A stretch of DNA of 32,000 bases from a virus. Under the pieces are notes generated by a model that was not told where the DNA came from, did no database searches, and saw nothing but the letters and a program-made list of their open reading frames with translations. The position numbers were made by a program, and so were the translations under genes. This document shows, piece by piece, positions 1,150-31,497 of the stretch. The stretch covers positions 31,402 to 63,401 of the IMG/VR virus record IMGVR_UViG_3300033144_005525; one strand, 5' to 3'. The number at the start of each line of letters is the position of its first letter. The first letter of the stretch is position 1.

Positions 1150-1237
1150 GTGTTCACCTTTGGGGGAGCTGGAGCCGCTACGGCTCGTGCGGGACTCTTA
1201 GTAAGAGAGCGGAGAATCATGCAAACCTGTCCCCTAC

Positions 1238-1762
1238 TTACGAAGTCGTAGGCTGTGCAGGTGTCTGTGCAAACTCTTTCTGAATCAAGGAAGCAGCGGC
1301 TTGCTTTCTTACTCGATGCCTCGCCTCTTGTATTGCGTCCGTAGCTCCCAGAGGTTGAAGGCGTCCCGATCGAAGGAGTTCCGCTTTCTGGGACAGAGCT
1401 TCCTGCCCCTGAGACAGTTTCTGCTGCATCTTGACCTTGGTTAGGTCGACCATCGGAGTCACTCGTAGTGCCCCTCGACCTAGCTCTTGCTGCATCGCCT
1501 TCTTGAGTTCGGAGATCTCCACACTCTTCTGTCTCTTCTCGAATGGGAAGAAGGACTCCCTCAAGTCGTCGAACGCTTTTTCGATGGCCTTTCCTTCCGA
1601 TCCTTGTTGACTCATCAGAGCCTGAACAACTGATCGGCTCTTCTGGAATTCGATCTGTTGGCGCATCCTCCACAACACTAAAAAGAGGATTTCCATCGGG
1701 GAGCCTGGGTCTGGGACCCCTTGCATTCGGTCGAATAATATGTTGGCCCGCGCCCATCCCAA
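1238..1762 (-). CDS. hypothetical helical protein
   Basis: 174-aa ORF with protein-like composition. The overlapping frame 1146-1757 is R/S/G/P-rich and looks like an off-frame artefact. Confidence 0.5.
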   Translation of the reverse strand: MGWARANILFDRMQGVPDPGSPMEILFLVLWRMRQQIEFQKSRSVVQALMSQQGSEGKAIEKAFDDLRESFFPFEKRQKSVEISELKKAMQQELGRGALRVTPMVDLTKVKMQQKLSQGQEALSQKAELLRSGRLQPLGATDAIQEARHRVRKQAAASLIQKEFAQTPAQPTTS

Positions 1763-1770
1763 TGGAGTCC

Positions 1771-2787
1771 CTAGAAATCCTGAACCTTGTCGATAGCGAG
1801 CAGGGACTGAACTCGTTCGGTGAACCAGGTGAAGTTGGCCGACATGTCCGCGACGATCACCATCGGGTACTTCAGGATGATCTTGTACTTCACATCGAAC
1901 AGCTCTTTGTCAGGCACCCCATCCTTCAGGTGGGACGGCAAAGGCTTGCCATTCAGTGCGTAGAGGCCACAGCACAGACCCATAGACGCATACTTGTCCA
2001 TGATGTACTGAGAGGACCCGTCCTCAGTACTGATCTCTCTCTTGACGAACAGATCTTCTTCTCCCGACGGGGTGCGGAAGAGTGGACGGAACTTCGGAAG
2101 GATTGGAACTTCCTGTCGAAGCTCTCGGTTGATGATGAGGTCTTCGTAGTTCAGCTCATCCTTGATGTGCGCCTCGATTGCCAACCTTCGCTCTTTGTTG
2201 GATAGGATGTCTTTGGTGACTCGACCGAGCTCGTTGTAGTCGTACCCATCATCCGTATCTTCAGAGGTCTTATCGACTTCCGGGGTCTCCTCTTCCTTCG
2301 CATTGGCCTCAGCTACTTGCTCGAGCTGTTCGAGAGTCTCTGGACGCAGCCCGGCTCCTGCAGACCGCGGGGGATTGGCAGGTTGATCTCCTTGACCTGT
2401 GATCTCCATAGGAGGAGGAGCTGGTTGTGACGACGGAGACTGCACTCCTCTGGGCTGGTTGGCCATGTAGGCCCCACCCACTCCAGGGATGACCTGTCCT
2501 TGCTGTACTCCCTGGGCGTACTGCTCCGGGGACATCATTGTCTCGGCCCCAGATCGTGCTTGCTGTTGAGCTCCAGCCTGCTGGGAATGTGCTTGTTGCA
2601 CACCCAAGCCCCGATCCCTAGGAGCTCCAGTAGGAGGCTGATCGAGTCGTGGGATAGATGGCATCGGTACTCCCCCTACAGGGACGTCACCGGACTTGGC
2701 CATCGCGATTCTGTCCGCATATTCCCTAGCACCTGCAGGAGACAGGTCGGTCGGGTTGTTCGGATCACCTTTGCTCATCTGGTTCAT
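1771..2787 (-). CDS. hypothetical protein (Q/G/P-rich N-terminus, globular C-terminus)
   Basis: 338-aa ORF, the longest in this block. No family recognised. Confidence 0.6.
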   Translation of the reverse strand: MNQMSKGDPNNPTDLSPAGAREYADRIAMAKSGDVPVGGVPMPSIPRLDQPPTGAPRDRGLGVQQAHSQQAGAQQQARSGAETMMSPEQYAQGVQQGQVIPGVGGAYMANQPRGVQSPSSQPAPPPMEITGQGDQPANPPRSAGAGLRPETLEQLEQVAEANAKEEETPEVDKTSEDTDDGYDYNELGRVTKDILSNKERRLAIEAHIKDELNYEDLIINRELRQEVPILPKFRPLFRTPSGEEDLFVKREISTEDGSSQYIMDKYASMGLCCGLYALNGKPLPSHLKDGVPDKELFDVKYKIILKYPMVIVADMSANFTWFTERVQSLLAIDKVQDF

Positions 2788-2798
2788 TCTCCCAATCG

Positions 2799-3149
2799 TT
2801 ATTCGTTGTCGCCTGGATCGAAGTTCTTACTTGGGTCCCGATGCGGGGCTCCTGTGAACTGAGTGTGGGGCAAGTCGTCGTACCCAGGATCAACTCCTGG
2901 GATGACGGGAGGCTCCGAGAAGTCCGCTATCTGTACCCCGATACCACCGGACCAGGTCTGGTTACAGACCTTCCCGGTCTTTGGGTCGGCCTTCAGACAG
3001 ATCCTCTTCAGACCCCATTGACCGGCCTTGGCCGTAATCGAGCCATCCATTCCGGTGTTGCCACACTTGGGGCACTTGATGATGGGAGAGACATCCTGTG
3101 CCTCGTCCCACGGGAATGAGATGTTGTCGGGTTTGTCTCTACTAGACAT
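2799..3149 (-). CDS. zinc-ribbon protein
   Basis: 116-aa ORF with CPKCGN...C...C motif. Confidence 0.55.
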   Translation of the reverse strand: MSSRDKPDNISFPWDEAQDVSPIIKCPKCGNTGMDGSITAKAGQWGLKRICLKADPKTGKVCNQTWSGGIGVQIADFSEPPVIPGVDPGYDDLPHTQFTGAPHRDPSKNFDPGDNE

Positions 3150-3603
3150 CGAGACAGACCTCTCGGTATTTCAAAACCAACGCGCACGCACTCAAGAATT
3201 CTTCCTCTGTCATATCGGTCTTCATCCGATTGATTCGATAACTGACCCATTGAAGATTGCCTATTTCCGGCAGTCCTCCACGAGTTCTAGGGACTATGTG
3301 ATCCAAACTCGCACATTCCCCAGGTATTAAGGCCTCTCCCGTGTATGCGCAACGCCCTCTCTGTTTTTTCCACAGAGCTTCTAGCGCCGGTCCGGCGGAA
3401 CGAGTGCCCAAATGATCACTGGCTCTCGCTGCAAACCAACACTCTAGGCACAACGATTTAACTACGGGAGGGGACTCACAACGAGGACATAGGTCCGCCT
3501 CACGACGGTCGCGGTACCGATTAGGACCTCGGAAGATATAGGCCCTCTTAGGCTTCTTTTCGTAGGTCCTGACTCCTACTGCTCGTGGGCTCCAGACAGG
3601 CAA
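3142..3603 (-). CDS. HNH endonuclease
   Basis: SLDHIVPRTRGG...NLQWVSYRINRMK is an HNH core (H-N-N). Cys pairs lie upstream. Confidence 0.75.
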   Translation of the reverse strand: MPVWSPRAVGVRTYEKKPKRAYIFRGPNRYRDRREADLCPRCESPPVVKSLCLECWFAARASDHLGTRSAGPALEALWKKQRGRCAYTGEALIPGECASLDHIVPRTRGGLPEIGNLQWVSYRINRMKTDMTEEEFLSACALVLKYREVCLDV

Positions 3604-4155: not shown

Positions 4156-4569
4156 ATGCCTCGTGCCATCACTGAGTCCCCAAAGGACATCAGAAAGAAT
4201 CTACGCAAGAACGACGAACTGCAGTCCGGTATAGATATCCCGGACAGCGTATTCAAAAGTCGTCCGAGCATCTGGGGAGATTGCAAGAACGCCAAGCGAC
4301 CTTGCCCTTGGGTAGGGTGCAAGCACCATTTGTACCTGGACGTGAATCCAGAGACAGGTGCTATCAAAATCAACTTTCCAGGACTCGAGCCGTGGGAACT
4401 GGGTGAGACCTGCTCCCTAGATGTATCCGAAGACAGGGAGAGCACCCTGGATGAGATCGGGAACCTGATGAACCTCAGTAGGGAGAGGATCCGTCAAATC
4501 GAGACCATCATCTCCAAGAAGCTGAGGCCCCACTTCAAGCAGAAGGGCATCACACCTTCCAGAAGCTAG
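4156..4569 (+). CDS. sigma-70 region-4-like HTH DNA-binding protein
   Basis: C-terminal TLDEIGNLMNLSRERIRQIETIISKKLR matches the sigma70 region 4.2 pattern. ATG at 4156 preferred over the upstream GTG at 4102. Confidence 0.65.
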   Translation: MPRAITESPKDIRKNLRKNDELQSGIDIPDSVFKSRPSIWGDCKNAKRPCPWVGCKHHLYLDVNPETGAIKINFPGLEPWELGETCSLDVSEDRESTLDEIGNLMNLSRERIRQIETIISKKLRPHFKQKGITPSRS

Positions 4570-8508: not shown

Positions 8509-8678
8509 GGCCGAGGCTGGAGAAACTCTTAGGTCGATCGGAGCCATTCCTTTTGGGGCTTTTTGCCGCCGTGATCGTGCTTCTGATTGCATTAGCCTTT
8601 TACGGCAGTCACGTGCGGAACGAAAGAGACATCGAGAACCGCAAGTGTTGCGAAGCAGCAAAGAGGTGCAATCTGTGA
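8505..8678 (+). CDS. small membrane protein (57 aa)
   Basis: GTG overlaps the thyX stop (GTGA). One TM segment, FLLGLFAAVIVLLIALAFY. Confidence 0.4.
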   Translation: MRPRLEKLLGRSEPFLLGLFAAVIVLLIALAFYGSHVRNERDIENRKCCEAAKRCNL

Positions 8679-8734
8679 AGATCAGGTCCCAACGGTTCGG
8701 GACCAATGACTTCCCGAGCCAATACGAGGTGGTG

Positions 8735-17954: not shown

Positions 17955-17989
17955 GAGAACCCTTTCGAGGGGGGTTCTTTTTCTTTTTT
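17955..17989 (+). terminator. rho-independent terminator
   Basis: Stem GAACCC/GGGTTC followed by TTTTTCTTTTTT. Confidence 0.65.
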
Positions 17990-17999
17990 GGAGTCAACT

Positions 18000-18506
18000 A
18001 TGAAGAAGCAGCACGTAGTGATTATGCGAGGCATCTCTGGATCTGGAAAATCCAGGTATCGAGAAGAGCATTATGCAGACTCTTTAGTAGCTTCCGCTGA
18101 TGACTTCTGGTCTATCGGAGGAGACAAAGAGTACGCGTTCGATCCACTCAAGATAGGGCTCGCACACAGCTGGTGTCTCCAGAAGTTCCTTGGGTATTTA
18201 CAACGGAACACCTTTCCGATGGTTCCGTACATCGTTGTAGACAACACGAACACCCGTGCCGTAGAGATAGCTCCCTACTACGCTCTGGCAGAATCCATGA
18301 AGCGTACCGTCGAGGTCATCACTATCTGGGCGGATCCAGAAGATGCGATAGCCAGGAATGTGCACAATGTTCCTGCCGATACGATCTCCGAGCAGTTCAA
18401 GACACTTCTGGAAGAAGGGAGTCGGATGCCTCCTTGGTGGAAGCACAAAATCTGGTGCTCTTCCGACTTCCATCAGAAGATGCAGGAGCGGCTGGAAAAC
18501 AAGTAG
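18000..18506 (+). CDS. P-loop kinase, polynucleotide-kinase-like
   Basis: Walker A GISGSGKS and VVDNTNTRAVEIAPYY (DNTN...R motif typical of PNK-type kinases). GGAG before the ATG at 18000. Confidence 0.6.
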   Translation: MKKQHVVIMRGISGSGKSRYREEHYADSLVASADDFWSIGGDKEYAFDPLKIGLAHSWCLQKFLGYLQRNTFPMVPYIVVDNTNTRAVEIAPYYALAESMKRTVEVITIWADPEDAIARNVHNVPADTISEQFKTLLEEGSRMPPWWKHKIWCSSDFHQKMQERLENK

Positions 18507-21640: not shown

Positions 21641-22168
21641 CTAGGACTCGAGCTCGGACGTCCAGTAGAGATAATCCCTCCAGGCGTCTGGTGCGTTCTC
21701 TCTACTAAGCCGGAGGACCATAACTGGAACCCAGGTAGGTCGGATGGGCTGTGTTCGCAGCTTCATCCTGGCCTGGCTGGGAGTCCGGCCACCCTTCTTC
21801 AAGTTGCACGGTGAGCAGGAGATGACGATGTTCGTCCACTCTGTCCTGCCTCCCTGTGAACGTGGAACGACGTGGTCGTAGGTGCTCTTCTCTATATCGA
21901 GCTTTGTCCCGCAGTACTGGCACCTGTACTTGTCACGAGCACAGATGTTGACTCGAGAGAACTTGATCGGCTTCTTCCTCCTCTTGAACGCCCTGAGTAG
22001 GCGGACAACGGCCGGCATCTTGATAACCAAGGAAGTGGACCGGATGTCCTGGTCGTACTCCTCGATGACTTCGACCTTGCCCAGGAAGAGCAAGGTCAAG
22101 GCTCGCTGCCATGAGACGACTTTGATCGGCTCGTAGCCTTGCGACAGCATGAGTGTCTGCGTTGTCAT
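21641..22168 (-). CDS. HNH endonuclease
   Basis: CQYCG...YDHVVPRSQGGRTEWTNIVISCSPCNLKKG. ATG at 22168 (MTTQTLMLSQGYEPI...) preferred over the upstream start at 22228, which overlaps a tRNA. Confidence 0.8.
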   Translation of the reverse strand: MTTQTLMLSQGYEPIKVVSWQRALTLLFLGKVEVIEEYDQDIRSTSLVIKMPAVVRLLRAFKRRKKPIKFSRVNICARDKYRCQYCGTKLDIEKSTYDHVVPRSQGGRTEWTNIVISCSPCNLKKGGRTPSQARMKLRTQPIRPTWVPVMVLRLSRENAPDAWRDYLYWTSELES

Positions 22169-22203
22169 GTCGCCCCTTTCTTTGGTTAGTTGCCTGAATA
22201 TAG

Positions 22204-22276
22204 TACCAGCGGTGAGATTCGAACTCACACTTGCAGCGTTCTTAGCACTGTGCCTCTGCCGTTGGGCTACGCTGGC
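22204..22276 (-). tRNA. tRNA with Leu-type anticodon AAG, short variable loop
   Basis: Anticodon arm CAGTG-CTAAGAA-CGCTG, T-arm GTGAG-TTCGAAT-CTCAC. G1-U72, A73, 5-nt variable loop. 73 nt. Confidence 0.65.
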
Positions 22277-22920: not shown

Positions 22921-22924
22921 GTAG

Positions 22925-22955
22925 TAGGGGTAGAGGGATTCGAACCCTCACTGAA
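22925..22955 (-). pseudogene. orphan tRNA 3' portion (variable loop + T-arm + acceptor 3' strand)
   Basis: GAGGG-TTCGAAT-CCCTC followed by TACCCCT-A. No D or anticodon arm follows, because the HNH stop codon is 5 nt away. Confidence 0.55.
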
Positions 22956-22959
22956 GGGC

Positions 22960-23433
22960 TTACTTTCTGTTGTTCTTCCCGCAGTACGTCTCTGTCTGAG
23001 AATGGCAGTTGGGGCAGAGCAGCCTGAGGTTGCTGACTCTGTTATCTCTCCTGTTTCCATTCTTGTGGTCCAGGTGTAGAGACAACTCTTCTCCTCCCCA
23101 CTTCAATATTCCACATGCGGAGCACTTGTATTTCAAGACTCCTTCTCTCACTAACCTAGATTTCAGGCTCCCATTATTGGTGTACTTACTGTTCCTGACG
23201 AGAATCTTCTTGAGTGGAATCGTCCCTGGAGGAGATGGGAGGGTTTTGCCCTTGTTATGGCTTTGTCCGAGAAAATGAGATGTATCTAGACCAAGCCTTT
23301 CTATGTGGAGCTGAATACTGTGGTAGTTACCACCAGCCGGGACTAGTCCAATACCCCTTAGCACTTGTGCCAGGGACGTGGCCTTCTTGACCTCCCGTTT
23401 CAGCTCGGGATCTGTCCAAGTTCTATCTGACAT
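22960..23433 (-). CDS. HNH endonuclease
   Basis: LHLDHKNGNRRDNRVSNLRLLCPNCH. Confidence 0.8.
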   Translation of the reverse strand: MSDRTWTDPELKREVKKATSLAQVLRGIGLVPAGGNYHSIQLHIERLGLDTSHFLGQSHNKGKTLPSPPGTIPLKKILVRNSKYTNNGSLKSRLVREGVLKYKCSACGILKWGGEELSLHLDHKNGNRRDNRVSNLRLLCPNCHSQTETYCGKNNRK

Positions 23434-24842: not shown

Positions 24843-24991
24843 TGGGCCCCGGATGAATCGAACATCCATCTCCCGCCTTTCGGTTCCTCAAAGGGCTACG
24901 ACCTAGTACTTGAGTTAGCCACCTCTTTTCCGAGTCGCTGGGCTAAACCCCCTCGAGTCAACGGGCGCTCTACCGATTGAGCTAAAGACCC
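24843..24991 (-). tRNA. tRNA gene with a 77-nt structured insertion in the anticodon loop (anticodon undetermined)
   Basis: GGGTCTT-TA-GCTC-AATCGGTA-GAGC-G-CCCGT...[84 nt]...GCGGG-AGAT-GGATG-TTCGATT-CATCC-GGGGCCC-A. All four stems are in register except that 84 nt replace the 7-nt loop. Confidence 0.55.
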
Positions 24992-24995
24992 ATAG

Positions 24996-25030
24996 AGCTG
25001 GTGAGAGGAGTCGAGCCCACCCACCACAAC
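24996..25030 (-). pseudogene. 3' part (nt 39-73) of a split Thr(TGT)-like tRNA
   Basis: GTTGT-GGTGG-GTGGG-CTCGACT-CCTCT-CACCAGC-T. The acceptor strand is perfectly complementary to the 5' part at 25575-25611. Confidence 0.6.
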
Positions 25031-25038
25031 CAATATAG

Positions 25039-25111
25039 AGCCGGAGACAGGAATTGAACCCGCAACCCTCTGCTTACAAAGCAGTAGCTCTACCAATTGA
25101 GCTACTCCGGC
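25039..25111 (-). tRNA. tRNA-Thr(TGT)
   Basis: Anticodon arm ACTGC-TTTGTAA-GCAGA, D-arm GCTC-AATTGGTA-GAGC, T-arm GCGGG-TTCAATT-CCTGT. The 5' 37 nt overlap the HNH 3' end. Confidence 0.8.
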
Positions 25112-25532
25112 GACTTCGTCTTTCGTGAGTACGCTGCCTGTGGCAATTAGCACACACGAGATCGCATTTCTCGATCTCTTCCAGCACCTTCTTCTCGGTT
25201 GAGGACCTCACCAAGGTCGCGACAGCTGCCACTTTCTTACTACCCGGTCTGTGATCGAAATCCATTATCCACGGAGAGTAGGTCCTCCCACAATCCAAGC
25301 ACGGTTTGGTTTTCAGCCCATCTACAAGGACCTTCAACCTAATTCGCAATGCGTTGACGTTCCTTTTGGCTCTGGCTATCTCATGCTTCTTGTTGTTCTT
25401 GTAGTAGATCTTGTAGTAGTTCGCGGTGCATTCCTTACAGATCGAACCCAATCCGCCCCTCTTCTTAGAACAGGTCTTCGAGGTTCGTCTCTTCCCGCAC
25501 TTGCTACATGCCTTCTTCGGGGTGACTGGCAT
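25074..25532 (-). CDS. HNH endonuclease
   Basis: CSKCG...CLDCG...MDFDHRPGSKK...CDLVCANCHRQRTHER. Start is either ATG 25532 or TTG 25550. The stop lies inside tRNA-Thr(TGT). Confidence 0.75.
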   Translation of the reverse strand: MPVTPKKACSKCGKRRTSKTCSKKRGGLGSICKECTANYYKIYYKNNKKHEIARAKRNVNALRIRLKVLVDGLKTKPCLDCGRTYSPWIMDFDHRPGSKKVAAVATLVRSSTEKKVLEEIEKCDLVCANCHRQRTHERRSRRSSSIGRATAL

Positions 25533-25574
25533 CCTCTGAATGTAAACCAAGGAGAGTTGTAAATCAATCCATGT

Positions 25575-25622: not shown

Positions 25623-26132
25623 ATGGGAACAAAACCTAGAAACAACAATCCCTACAACATGGTTCCTTTCATACTCAAACCCAAACCTAGTCGTATTCGG
25701 TACTACTTGATACACAAGGACAACTCGGAGAACACCTTAAAGGCAATACGTCGTCGAAACCCTTTGCATCGAGGAATGCTGGAAAACAACTGGAACTGGT
25801 ATCTTGAGTCAAGAGCTAATCATGTCGTAATTGCCTACGACCCAAAATCCAGAGACCCCATCGTTGGTGCATTCAAGTTCGACTTTGGACGTAGATGGCA
25901 CTCAATTAACTCACATGGCACCTGGGTTCGTTCTTCCTTCCAACGCAGGGGGATAGCGAAGACCATGTGGATCACTGCGATCAGGAAGTTGAAGGTAGAG
26001 AGAGTAGAAGTACGAGTCGTATCAGACAGAGGACTCACCCTCATCTCGTCCATCAAGAAGAAGTTCCCACGAGTTCGATTCCAACTATGGGAAGACGGAG
26101 ACAGAAAACTCCGTCATCTGAAGGCTGCCTAG
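25623..26132 (+). CDS. GNAT-family N-acetyltransferase
   Basis: Motif A-like VRSSFQRRGIAKTMW (Q/RxxGxA). AGGAAA before the ATG. Confidence 0.5.
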   Translation: MGTKPRNNNPYNMVPFILKPKPSRIRYYLIHKDNSENTLKAIRRRNPLHRGMLENNWNWYLESRANHVVIAYDPKSRDPIVGAFKFDFGRRWHSINSHGTWVRSSFQRRGIAKTMWITAIRKLKVERVEVRVVSDRGLTLISSIKKKFPRVRFQLWEDGDRKLRHLKAA

Positions 26133-26437: not shown

Positions 26438-26511
26438 TGGTCCCTCCGTGAAGAATCGAACTCCCGTCTGTCGGTTATCAGCCGACGGCTCTACCACTGA
26501 GCTACGAAGGG
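26438..26511 (-). tRNA. tRNA-Ile(GAT)
   Basis: Anticodon arm GTCGG-CTGATAA-CCGAC, D-arm GCTC-AGTGGTA-GAGC. CCA encoded. Confidence 0.85.
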
Positions 26512-26516
26512 GTGTT

Positions 26517-26588
26517 TGGTACCGAGACTCGGAATTGAACCGAGCAGAGCAGCCTTGTAAGAGCCGCCTCCGACCCAGCGGCCTCGGC
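26517..26588 (-). tRNA. tRNA-Val(TAC)
   Basis: Anticodon arm CGGCT-CTTACAA-GGCTG, T-arm CTCGG-TTCAATT-CCGAG. Reduced D-arm CCG-CTGGGT-CGG. CCA encoded. Confidence 0.7.
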
Positions 26589-26592
26589 ATAG

Positions 26593-26664
26593 TCGGAGTA
26601 GGGAGAATCGAACTCCCGATCTCACCGTCCCGAACGGTGCGCGATACCACTTCGCTACACTCCG
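26593..26664 (-). tRNA. tRNA-Pro(CGG)
   Basis: Anticodon arm CACCG-TTCGGGA-CGGTG, C1-G72, D-arm GCGA-AGTGGTA-TCGC. Confidence 0.85.
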
Positions 26665-26833: not shown

Positions 26834-26905
26834 TGGGCCTCCAGGGAATCGGACCCTGCCCTACCGGTTATGAGCCGGCGGCTCTACCCAGTGAGCTAAA
26901 GGCCC
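26834..26905 (-). tRNA. tRNA(CAT), elongator Met or Ile2
   Basis: Anticodon arm GCCGG-CTCATAA-CCGGT, D-arm GCTC-ACTGGGTA-GAGC, T-loop TCCGATT. Confidence 0.8.
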
Positions 26906-26979: not shown

Positions 26980-27054
26980 TGGAGCAGGTGATGGGAATCG
27001 AACCCACCTATACGACGTTGGCAACGTCGTGCCTCACCAGTCGGCTTCACCTGC
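26980..27054 (-). tRNA. tRNA-Gly(GCC)
   Basis: Anticodon arm CGACG-TTGCCAA-CGTCG, U73. CCA encoded. Confidence 0.85.
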
Positions 27055-31278: not shown

Positions 31279-31497
31279 ATGGCAGTATTCAATTCACGAT
31301 TCACCGCTCCTATCGACGATAGGAGAAAACTCCATATCATCCACGAAGACCGGAGTCCTCAATTCATCTTCTGCATCCAGAAGAATGGAAAGAGTATCTG
31401 GAAGTCTCGGATCACCTTCTCTCTGAACAAGGGAATGGTGTATCGGATGGCGGAATGGATCCTATCCCACAGGGATGCTGAGGGAGAGCATAGGTGA
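31279..31497 (+). CDS. hypothetical protein
   Basis: 72-aa ORF. Confidence 0.4.
   Translation: MAVFNSRFTAPIDDRRKLHIIHEDRSPQFIFCIQKNGKSIWKSRITFSLNKGMVYRMAEWILSHRDAEGEHR

Follow-up and report, generated by a model that had tools for sequence, protein, structure and literature searches.

The cleavage and depletion of host tRNAs are a matter of conflict in which phage tRNA arrays are now seen as weapons. In bacteriophage T4 the end of the tRNA cluster encodes two further RNAs of ~120–140 nt, species 1 and species 2 (rnaC and rnaD), whose function is unknown and which provide a precedent for stable RNAs in such a setting. The anticodon loops of bacterial tRNAs are also known sites of group I introns, found in tRNA-Leu UAA, tRNA-fMet, tRNA-Ile CAU and tRNA-Arg CCU. 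Here we describe a 149-nt tRNA-like gene in which an 84-nt segment replaces the 7-nt anticodon loop. It lies in a stretch of 32,000 nt from the IMG/VR virus record IMGVR_UViG_3300033144_005525 (positions 31,402 to 63,401), which is part of a large bacteriophage genome. This whole stretch is referred to as the window and all coordinates are given relative to its first nucleotide unless another contig is named.

The gene is tRNA-derived and non-decoding, and comes from an ordinary class-I tRNA. Splicing of its transcript into a canonical, decoding tRNA is in our view unlikely. The gene probably represents either a tRNA mimic that does not decode or a damaged tRNA gene, rather than the carrier of a new intron. 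Our tentative preference is for a functional, unspliced but processed RNA of ~150 nt acting as a tRNA mimic.

Organization of the tRNA-like gene

The gene is on the same strand as a 35-gene tRNA array, and 4 nt separate it from the next tRNA downstream. Its minus-strand reading is GGGUCUU-UA-GCUC-AAUCGGUA-GAGC-G-CCCGU-[84 nt]-GCGGG-AGAU-GGAUG-UUCGAUU-CAUCC-GGGGCCC-A (Table 1). The Rfam tRNA model (RF00005, Infernal) aligned across the entire gene with 40.9 bits, against a gathering score of 29, and an E value of 7.6e-8. Positions 1–71 of the model are covered and the seven loop positions give way to the 84-nt insertion, which bears out both the tRNA register proposed in the initial annotation (acceptor, D, anticodon, variable and T parts) and its placing of 84 nt at the site of the anticodon loop. 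The match was obtained with a 156-nt query; in the wider searches (the whole window at the gathering score and 451 nt at E values up to 10) it was hidden by the speed filters.

All 21 stem pairs are formed: 7/7 in the acceptor stem (three of them U.G), 4/4 in the D stem, 5/5 in the anticodon stem and 5/5 in the T stem. The invariant positions (U8, A14, G18G19, A21, G53, U54, U55, C56, A58 and C61) are likewise kept. The acceptor stem, the D-arm, the T-arm and the nucleotides which form the elbow are all intact, and there is no anticodon that the molecule could present.

ARAGORN detects the gene in intron mode only and calls it "tRNA-Phe(aaa)" with a 79-nt intron, by way of a shifted anticodon stem. 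This register drops nucleotide 26, shortens the variable loop to 3 nt and accepts a G.A pair. The intron-mode check suggested at the outset thus recovered the gene, but in a forced and non-canonical register. In a strict scan of ~1.8 Mb of other loci, 510 canonical tRNAs satisfied the same criteria. Apart from this gene, all long-loop candidates proved to be chimeras of two tandem tRNA copies, and we therefore regard the feature as rare and real.

The 5′ body shares 83% identity with the 5′ portion of a tRNA-Met(cat) gene in the window (26876-26905). The tRNAs closest to the exons (~75% identity) are CAU-type tRNA-Met genes of the window and of Virus Rctr197k (197 kb), the only recognisable distant relative, whose tRNA-Asn and tRNA-Thr are 85% identical and whose ThyX is 42% identical to those of the window. 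When genomes were scanned for the 25 nt at the 5′ end, the matches were ordinary bacterial tRNA genes, mostly tRNA-Val(UAC) with some for Lys and Ala and chiefly from Micrococcaceae, so that the isotype of the exons cannot be assigned.

Table 1. Coordinates and principal characteristics of the tRNA-like gene, its parts and related features of the window
Feature	Coordinates	Strand	Characteristics
Whole tRNA-like gene, 149 nt	24843..24991	-	G1 = 24991, discriminator A = 24843; CCA not encoded; found with Rfam tRNA, ARAGORN intron mode and strict scans
5′ body	24961..24991	-	Acceptor 5′ strand GGGUCUU, U8 A9, D-arm GCUC-AAUCGGUA-GAGC, G26, anticodon-stem 5′ strand CCCGU
84-nt segment replacing the 7-nt anticodon loop	24877..24960	-	Written as a bracketed 84 in the Rfam alignment
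3′ body	24843..24876	-	Anticodon-stem 3′ strand GCGGG, 4-nt variable loop AGAU, T-arm GGAUG-UUCGAUU-CAUCC, acceptor 3′ strand GGGGCCC, A73
9-bp closing helix, 5′ strand	24949..24957	-	CUCGAGGGG; 3 nt above the anticodon stem; in minimum-energy fold
9-bp closing helix, 3′ strand	24887..24895	-	CCCUUUGAG; followed by 10 unpaired nt, GAACCGAAAG, up to the anticodon stem
Optional 6-bp inner helix, 5′ strand	24941..24946	-	UUAGCC; sequence reading, outside minimum-energy fold
Optional 6-bp inner helix, 3′ strand	24915..24920	-	GGCUAA; sequence reading, outside minimum-energy fold
Decayed tRNA 3′ fragment	24995..25021	-	T-arm and acceptor 3′ strand; in the 46-nt spacer directly upstream of the tRNA-like gene
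Decayed tRNA 3′ fragment	22921-22961	-	T-arm and acceptor 3′ strand; immediately after the stop of the HNH gene 22960-23433
HNH homing-endonuclease-like gene, free-standing	21641-22228	-	Inside tRNA array
HNH homing-endonuclease-like gene, free-standing	22960-23433	-	Inside tRNA array
HNH homing-endonuclease-like gene, free-standing	25074..25550	-	PHROG phrog_2255, E 1.3e-27; two genes upstream of the tRNA-like gene
tRNA-like gene 1	16913-16989	-	9-nt anticodon loop
tRNA-like gene 2	16992-17074	-	UUCG-capped helix in anticodon arm
tRNA-like gene 3	17078-17160	-	UUUG-capped helix in anticodon arm; cloverleaf fold z -4.7

Secondary structure of the insert

The ends of the insert are joined by a helix of 9 bp, CUCGAGGGG/CCCUUUGAG, which had been noticed at the start and which forms part of the minimum-energy fold. 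Three of its nine pairs are G.U and its Watson-Crick runs do not exceed three pairs. It is therefore restricted to RNA of the tRNA strand, the DNA having no such inverted repeat. Among shuffled sequences, 0.86% have a helix of this length or longer with its strands near the two ends, and 11.6% have a 9-bp helix at any place in the insert.

No second copy of the insert was found in the window, nor any similarity between it and the window's tRNAs, and neither a promoter nor a terminator was found within the gene. A length of 84 nt is that expected from two tandem tRNA copies with a 1-nt spacer. Such a nested or tandem-copy origin was rejected: the interior is without tRNA similarity, and lowering the ARAGORN threshold to 60% brings up no tRNA within it. 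The insert is also complementary over 25 nt to the 3′ terminus of a tRNA-Val-like gene (26510-26534), but this was discarded as it lies within chance expectation.

A candidate tRNA mimic

In the reading that we tentatively prefer, the 84-nt arm replaces the anticodon loop of an ordinary class-I tRNA and the product stays unspliced. The gene would be co-transcribed with the tRNA array and, to judge from its tRNA-like shape, its product would be released by RNase P and the 3′-end processing enzymes, because the acceptor/T-arm half of a tRNA is what these recognise. CCA would then be added and a stable tRNA-like RNA of ~150 nt would accumulate. Such an RNA would not decode but could serve as a decoy or as a binding platform for proteins which recognise the tRNA shape, candidate partners being host tRNA-targeting nucleases and RNA-repair and modification factors. 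This biochemical role is a guess.

The window contains three other tRNA-like genes without a normal anticodon arm. They lie in tandem at 16.9–17.2 kb (Table 1), spaced by 2–3 nt, and have acceptor stems of 6–7 bp, good D and T arms and aberrant anticodon arms. They adjoin a gene for a P-loop polynucleotide-kinase-like protein (17988-18506). The intact tRNA body, the strand-specific closing helix and these sibling genes together argue for a tRNA mimic.

Several observations weigh on the other side. An intact tRNA body is equally expected from a gene that has been disrupted recently. The Rfam tRNA model does not match any of the three sibling genes. The initial annotation had described the insert as highly structured, which is only partly borne out: its calculated energies are -23.8 to -25.2 kcal/mol, against -22.4 to -24.0 kcal/mol for shuffled sequences (z -0.39 to -0.50), and the entire 149 nt give a z of -0.72. 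Inner folds also compete with each other. The UUAGCC/GGCUAA helix which had been proposed does exist in the sequence but is outcompeted in the minimum-energy fold by GCGACU/GGUCGU. No match to the 149 nt was obtained with blastn among GenBank phages, a comparison of these phages with the region returned nothing beyond ordinary tRNAs, and exact-pattern scans of IMG/VR for both exons and the 5′ junction came back with 0 matches. No homologue that would give evidence of conservation or covariation was thus found. In Rctr197k, tRNA-Thr(tgt) directly abuts tRNA-Asn(gtt), while in the window the 46-nt spacer and the tRNA-like gene lie between the two; the fragment in the spacer and the gene therefore behave as an indel. 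Finally, there are signs of decay and rearrangement around the gene, in the form of two tRNA 3′ fragments and three homing endonuclease genes.

A possibly inactivated tRNA gene

A real possibility is that the gene is the relic of an array tRNA which lost its anticodon loop to an insertion or replacement of 84 bp, through recombination or double-strand-break repair linked to homing endonucleases. Its RNA might still be made and processed but would be without a role. No canonical anticodon loop can be recovered from the gene, and its insert is thermodynamically ordinary and without relatives, as would suit such an event. The setting also fits. The fragment immediately upstream (24995..25021) is closest to the tRNA-Gly(gcc) at 26980, with a local alignment score of 29 against 17.7 +/- 2.2 for shuffled sequences (0/300 as good), a further tRNA 3′ fragment adjoins an HNH gene, and the array holds three HNH endonuclease genes in all. 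To this can be added the Thr(tgt)–Asn(gtt) adjacency in Rctr197k and a second tRNA-Asn copy downstream which is also weak (34.9 bits).

Against this reading, none of the 21 stem pairs or ten invariant positions is damaged, though identity between the exons and their nearest paralogue is only ~75%. Ends that pair as they do here, in a G.U-dependent 9-bp helix, would be expected in ~1% of random insertions, and the other anticodon-less tRNA-like genes of the genome look built rather than decayed. The initial annotation had offered three readings: a new small intron, which is now disfavoured, an insertion, and a non-decoding tRNA-like RNA. The last two survive, and are not separated because no homologous locus was found.

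An unlikely new type of intron

It is unlikely that the segment is a new small intron of ~77–84 nt, outside group I, which an unknown ribozyme activity, or proteins of the host or the phage such as an endonuclease acting with RtcB-type ligation, would remove to yield a working but non-canonical tRNA. The insert does occupy the classic intron site, above an anticodon stem that is kept, and its closing helix draws both junctions together. In the register used by ARAGORN, U is the last nucleotide of the 5′ exon and G that of the intron, as is the case for group I introns, although this U|G...G|A junction pattern holds solely in that non-canonical register. The kinase-like protein encoded near the sibling genes could also be cited in favour. 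The positive support nevertheless amounts to the position and the closing helix, and nothing beyond.

A brute-force search over all single excisions gave no solution that combines a 5-bp stem and a loop of 7 nt bearing U33 and R37, in agreement with the earlier failure to place a U33-anticodon-R37 reading at either junction. When one mismatch was allowed, all solutions fell in the distorted ARAGORN register (no nucleotide 26, 3-nt variable loop, G.A pair). A search for a bulge-helix-bulge, also proposed in the initial annotation, gave no motif adjoining the anticodon stem: no 2-4 / 4 / 2-4 arrangement has the anticodon stem as its outer helix, and the junction is instead a 3 x 10 internal loop. 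At 79–84 nt the insert is far smaller than any group I core, as had been remarked, and no group I guide-sequence pairing with the exon end was convincing by inspection. Apart from tRNA, no Rfam family matched the 156- or 451-nt queries at E values up to 10. This leaves no match to Intron_gpI, to self-cleaving ribozymes (hammerhead, twister, HDV-like, pistol, hatchet) or to tmRNA (transfer-messenger RNA). Neither an RNA ligase nor a splicing endonuclease was found among the 20 longer open reading frames (ORFs) of the window that were scanned with Pfam (10 of them also with PHROGs), where the P-loop polynucleotide-kinase-like protein is the one product of a related kind. The ordinary fold of the insert speaks against an intron as well.

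A parallel comes from an unrelated 191.5-kb phage contig, IMGVR_UViG_3300044712_000998 (L015 below). It carries an initiator-like tRNA-Met gene (4253-4437, minus strand; Rfam 44.2 bits) with 108 nt inserted between C34 and A35, and exact excision of this insert would restore a canonical CUCAUGA loop. The insert folds as a three-way junction (z -2.7) whose hairpin loops UUUAGCCG and CGGCUAAA are complementary. Both inserts hold UUUAGCC and GGCUAA, which are able to pair, but they give no significant alignment with each other. Two IMG/VR scans for UUUAGCC...GGCUAA returned L015 alone. A family based on this motif was therefore rejected, there being no alignment and no further members, and its sharing is a probable coincidence.

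Two wider propositions are doubtful. One is that large phages carry undescribed anticodon-loop elements of ~80–110 nt, neither group I nor bulge-helix-bulge and removed or used through some unknown mechanism, of which the window gene and the L015 tRNA-Met would be divergent members with UUUAGCC/GGCUAA. The other is that this phage directs a set of four or more tRNA mimics without an anticodon at tRNA-targeting systems of the host.

Other tRNA-like RNAs

A minimal tmRNA-like molecule, made of the tRNA-like domain and the tag frame GCU AAC UCA AGU ACU AGG UCG UAG (ANSSTRS and a stop), is effectively refuted: the frame does begin with Ala-Asn, like many tmRNA tags, and phage tRNA arrays often hold tmRNA genes (L007 and L008 among the loci compared), but the gene has G3:C70 and not the G3:U70 required for alanine charging, it includes a full D-stem, which tmRNA lacks, it has no pseudoknots, the tag is without a hydrophobic C-terminus, and both ARAGORN in tmRNA mode (-m) and Rfam came back empty.

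Identity with YrlA RNA (RF02553) was rejected too. The window's only matches reach 13.7–15.8 bits, for a threshold of 69, and each combines a T-arm-like stretch with the D-arm of the next gene downstream, so that no single gene is covered.

Search for relatives

The full exon pattern consisted of GGGTCTTTAGCTCA, a gap of 2–4 nt, GGTAGAGC, a gap of 85–115 nt and GTTCGANTC; a shortened form of it was used to scan metagenomes. This gave at least 120 loci. Among the matches listed, 119 could be scored; only 14 of these had a near-complementary acceptor stem and all 14 are adjacent tRNA pairs or partial tRNA duplications. Two metagenome contigs (L140 and L203) carry, ~80 nt upstream of an entire tRNA-Thr(cgt) gene, a second copy of its 5′ portion up to and including the anticodon arm. 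The duplication resembles an integration-site scar and is reported by intron-mode ARAGORN as an intron-containing tRNA.

Protein comparisons were made against 5.8 billion proteins. The nearest relative of the neighbouring HNH protein is 58% identical over part of its length. Neither the kinase-like ORF nor a GNAT-like ORF of the array has a relative above 47% identity, and the GNAT-like ORF retrieved nothing but itself. With the nearest proteins at 58% identity or less, the phage represents a singleton lineage. It is these protein results, and not the DNA search, which suggest that homologues are absent from metagenomes. The contigs that encode distant homologues of the kinase-like and HNH proteins are not syntenic with the window.

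IMG/VR scans anchored on tRNA-Asn and tRNA-Thr(tgt) yielded 11 loci, among which L015 surfaced, but no relative of this phage. One phage contig obtained with the tRNA-Asn anchor (L008) encodes, at 2584-3542 on the minus strand, a GOLLD RNA (174.8 bits) and a permuted tmRNA beside a 22-gene tRNA array.

Genome setting and the tRNA array

Proteins encoded in the window include ThyX, several HNH endonucleases, a PARP-like protein and a peptidoglycan hydrolase of the Amidase_2 type. An identical counterpart of one of the window's ORF products occurs on a single JGI metagenome contig of 191,126 bp. The hydrolase, the HNH genes and the bacterial-type tRNAs identify the element as a bacteriophage. 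The PARP-like protein (8645-10114, plus strand; 489 aa) has a eukaryote-like architecture with WGR, PARP regulatory and PARP catalytic domains, and its nearest phage relatives, from jumbo phages of Xanthomonas, Stenotrophomonas and Klebsiella, are ~27% identical.

The tRNA array occupies about 20.0–29.3 kb of the minus strand. ARAGORN recognises 35 tRNAs at default settings and Rfam 26 at the gathering score; weaker ones at relaxed settings are those for Trp, Arg-acg, Arg-cct and a third CAU tRNA. With its tRNAs, at least 35 in number, the array serves nearly all amino acids, and CCA is encoded in some genes and not in others. It contains no tRNA-Ala, while Rctr197k has three. A tRNA-Val(tac)-like gene (26517-26597, minus strand) has an odd D-arm, a 6-nt ARAGORN overlap with tRNA-Pro(cgg) and a score below the Rfam gathering threshold.

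The HNH gene at 25074-25550 overlaps the 5′ end of tRNA-Thr(tgt), and its protein has 462 matches, some of them from Patescibacteria. At a relaxed threshold, ARAGORN takes up the 22921-22961 fragment in a dubious call of tRNA-Leu(taa) interrupted by an intron of 365 nt. An ORF on the opposite strand within the array (25623-26132, plus strand; 169 aa) is the GNAT-like ORF mentioned above; its similarity to GNAT acetyltransferases is weak (E 0.0014).

Comparison with known systems

Pseudogenes and fragments of tRNAs within arrays share with this locus a missing anticodon loop and the presence of decayed tRNA fragments, which here adjoin the gene. They differ from it in that the rest of the window's gene is undamaged and its insert is closed by a strand-specific helix. 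Should the gene be a relic, it would record the erosion of a tRNA array by homing endonucleases, and would be a caution that tRNA finders in intron mode assign spurious anticodons, such as the "Phe(aaa)" given here by ARAGORN.

The protein-spliced introns of archaeal and eukaryal tRNAs, of the bulge-helix-bulge kind, are comparable in being short, in lying in the anticodon arm and in having a helix over the anticodon stem. However, no 3-4-3 bulge-helix-bulge is present here, the insert is not at position 37/38 and the element is a bacteriophage. Group I tRNA introns occupy the same bacterial-type anticodon-loop site; moreover, the window is rich in homing endonucleases and, in one reading, a U precedes the insert and a G ends it. 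They measure at least 200 nt, and excision here restores no canonical loop. The L015 tRNA-Met resembles the window's gene in belonging to a large phage and in carrying ~100 nt in the anticodon loop, and differs in its strong fold and in the CAU loop that exact excision restores. If the window's insert were spliced, it would be the first tRNA intron outside group I in bacteria or phages.

Among non-decoding RNAs, YrlA is likewise a mimic of the T-arm, D-arm and acceptor of tRNA and occurs in some large phages. In contrast to the RNA described here, YrlA is permuted, ends in a Ro-binding stem and has its acceptor closed by a loop. Tandem YrlA matches are present in L015 (region 1216-2033, minus strand), at 1623-1749 (42.7 bits), 1524-1576 and 1216-1351; they are below Rfam thresholds and adjoin tRNAs. 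A twister-P5-like match, also below the Rfam threshold (31.8 bits), is found at 1964-2033 on the same strand.

The T4 species 1 and 2 RNAs are encoded, like the gene described here, in line with a phage tRNA cluster which also includes a homing endonuclease gene (segB). The window's gene shares this in-line position and the tRNA-like ends, but not the sequence, to which it has no similarity. T4 rnaC possesses a tRNA T-arm, CCGGG-UUCGAAU-CCCGG, and paired, acceptor-like ends around non-tRNA hairpins. It is without a D-arm and an anticodon stem and has a fold z of -4.6, whereas the window's RNA keeps the cloverleaf and has only its loop replaced. A non-decoding phage RNA which retains the processing and recognition features of tRNA would, if confirmed, be a natural "tRNA scaffold" or decoy, and a tRNA mimic of this type would add a new architecture to the kind represented by the unexplained species 1 and species 2 of T4.

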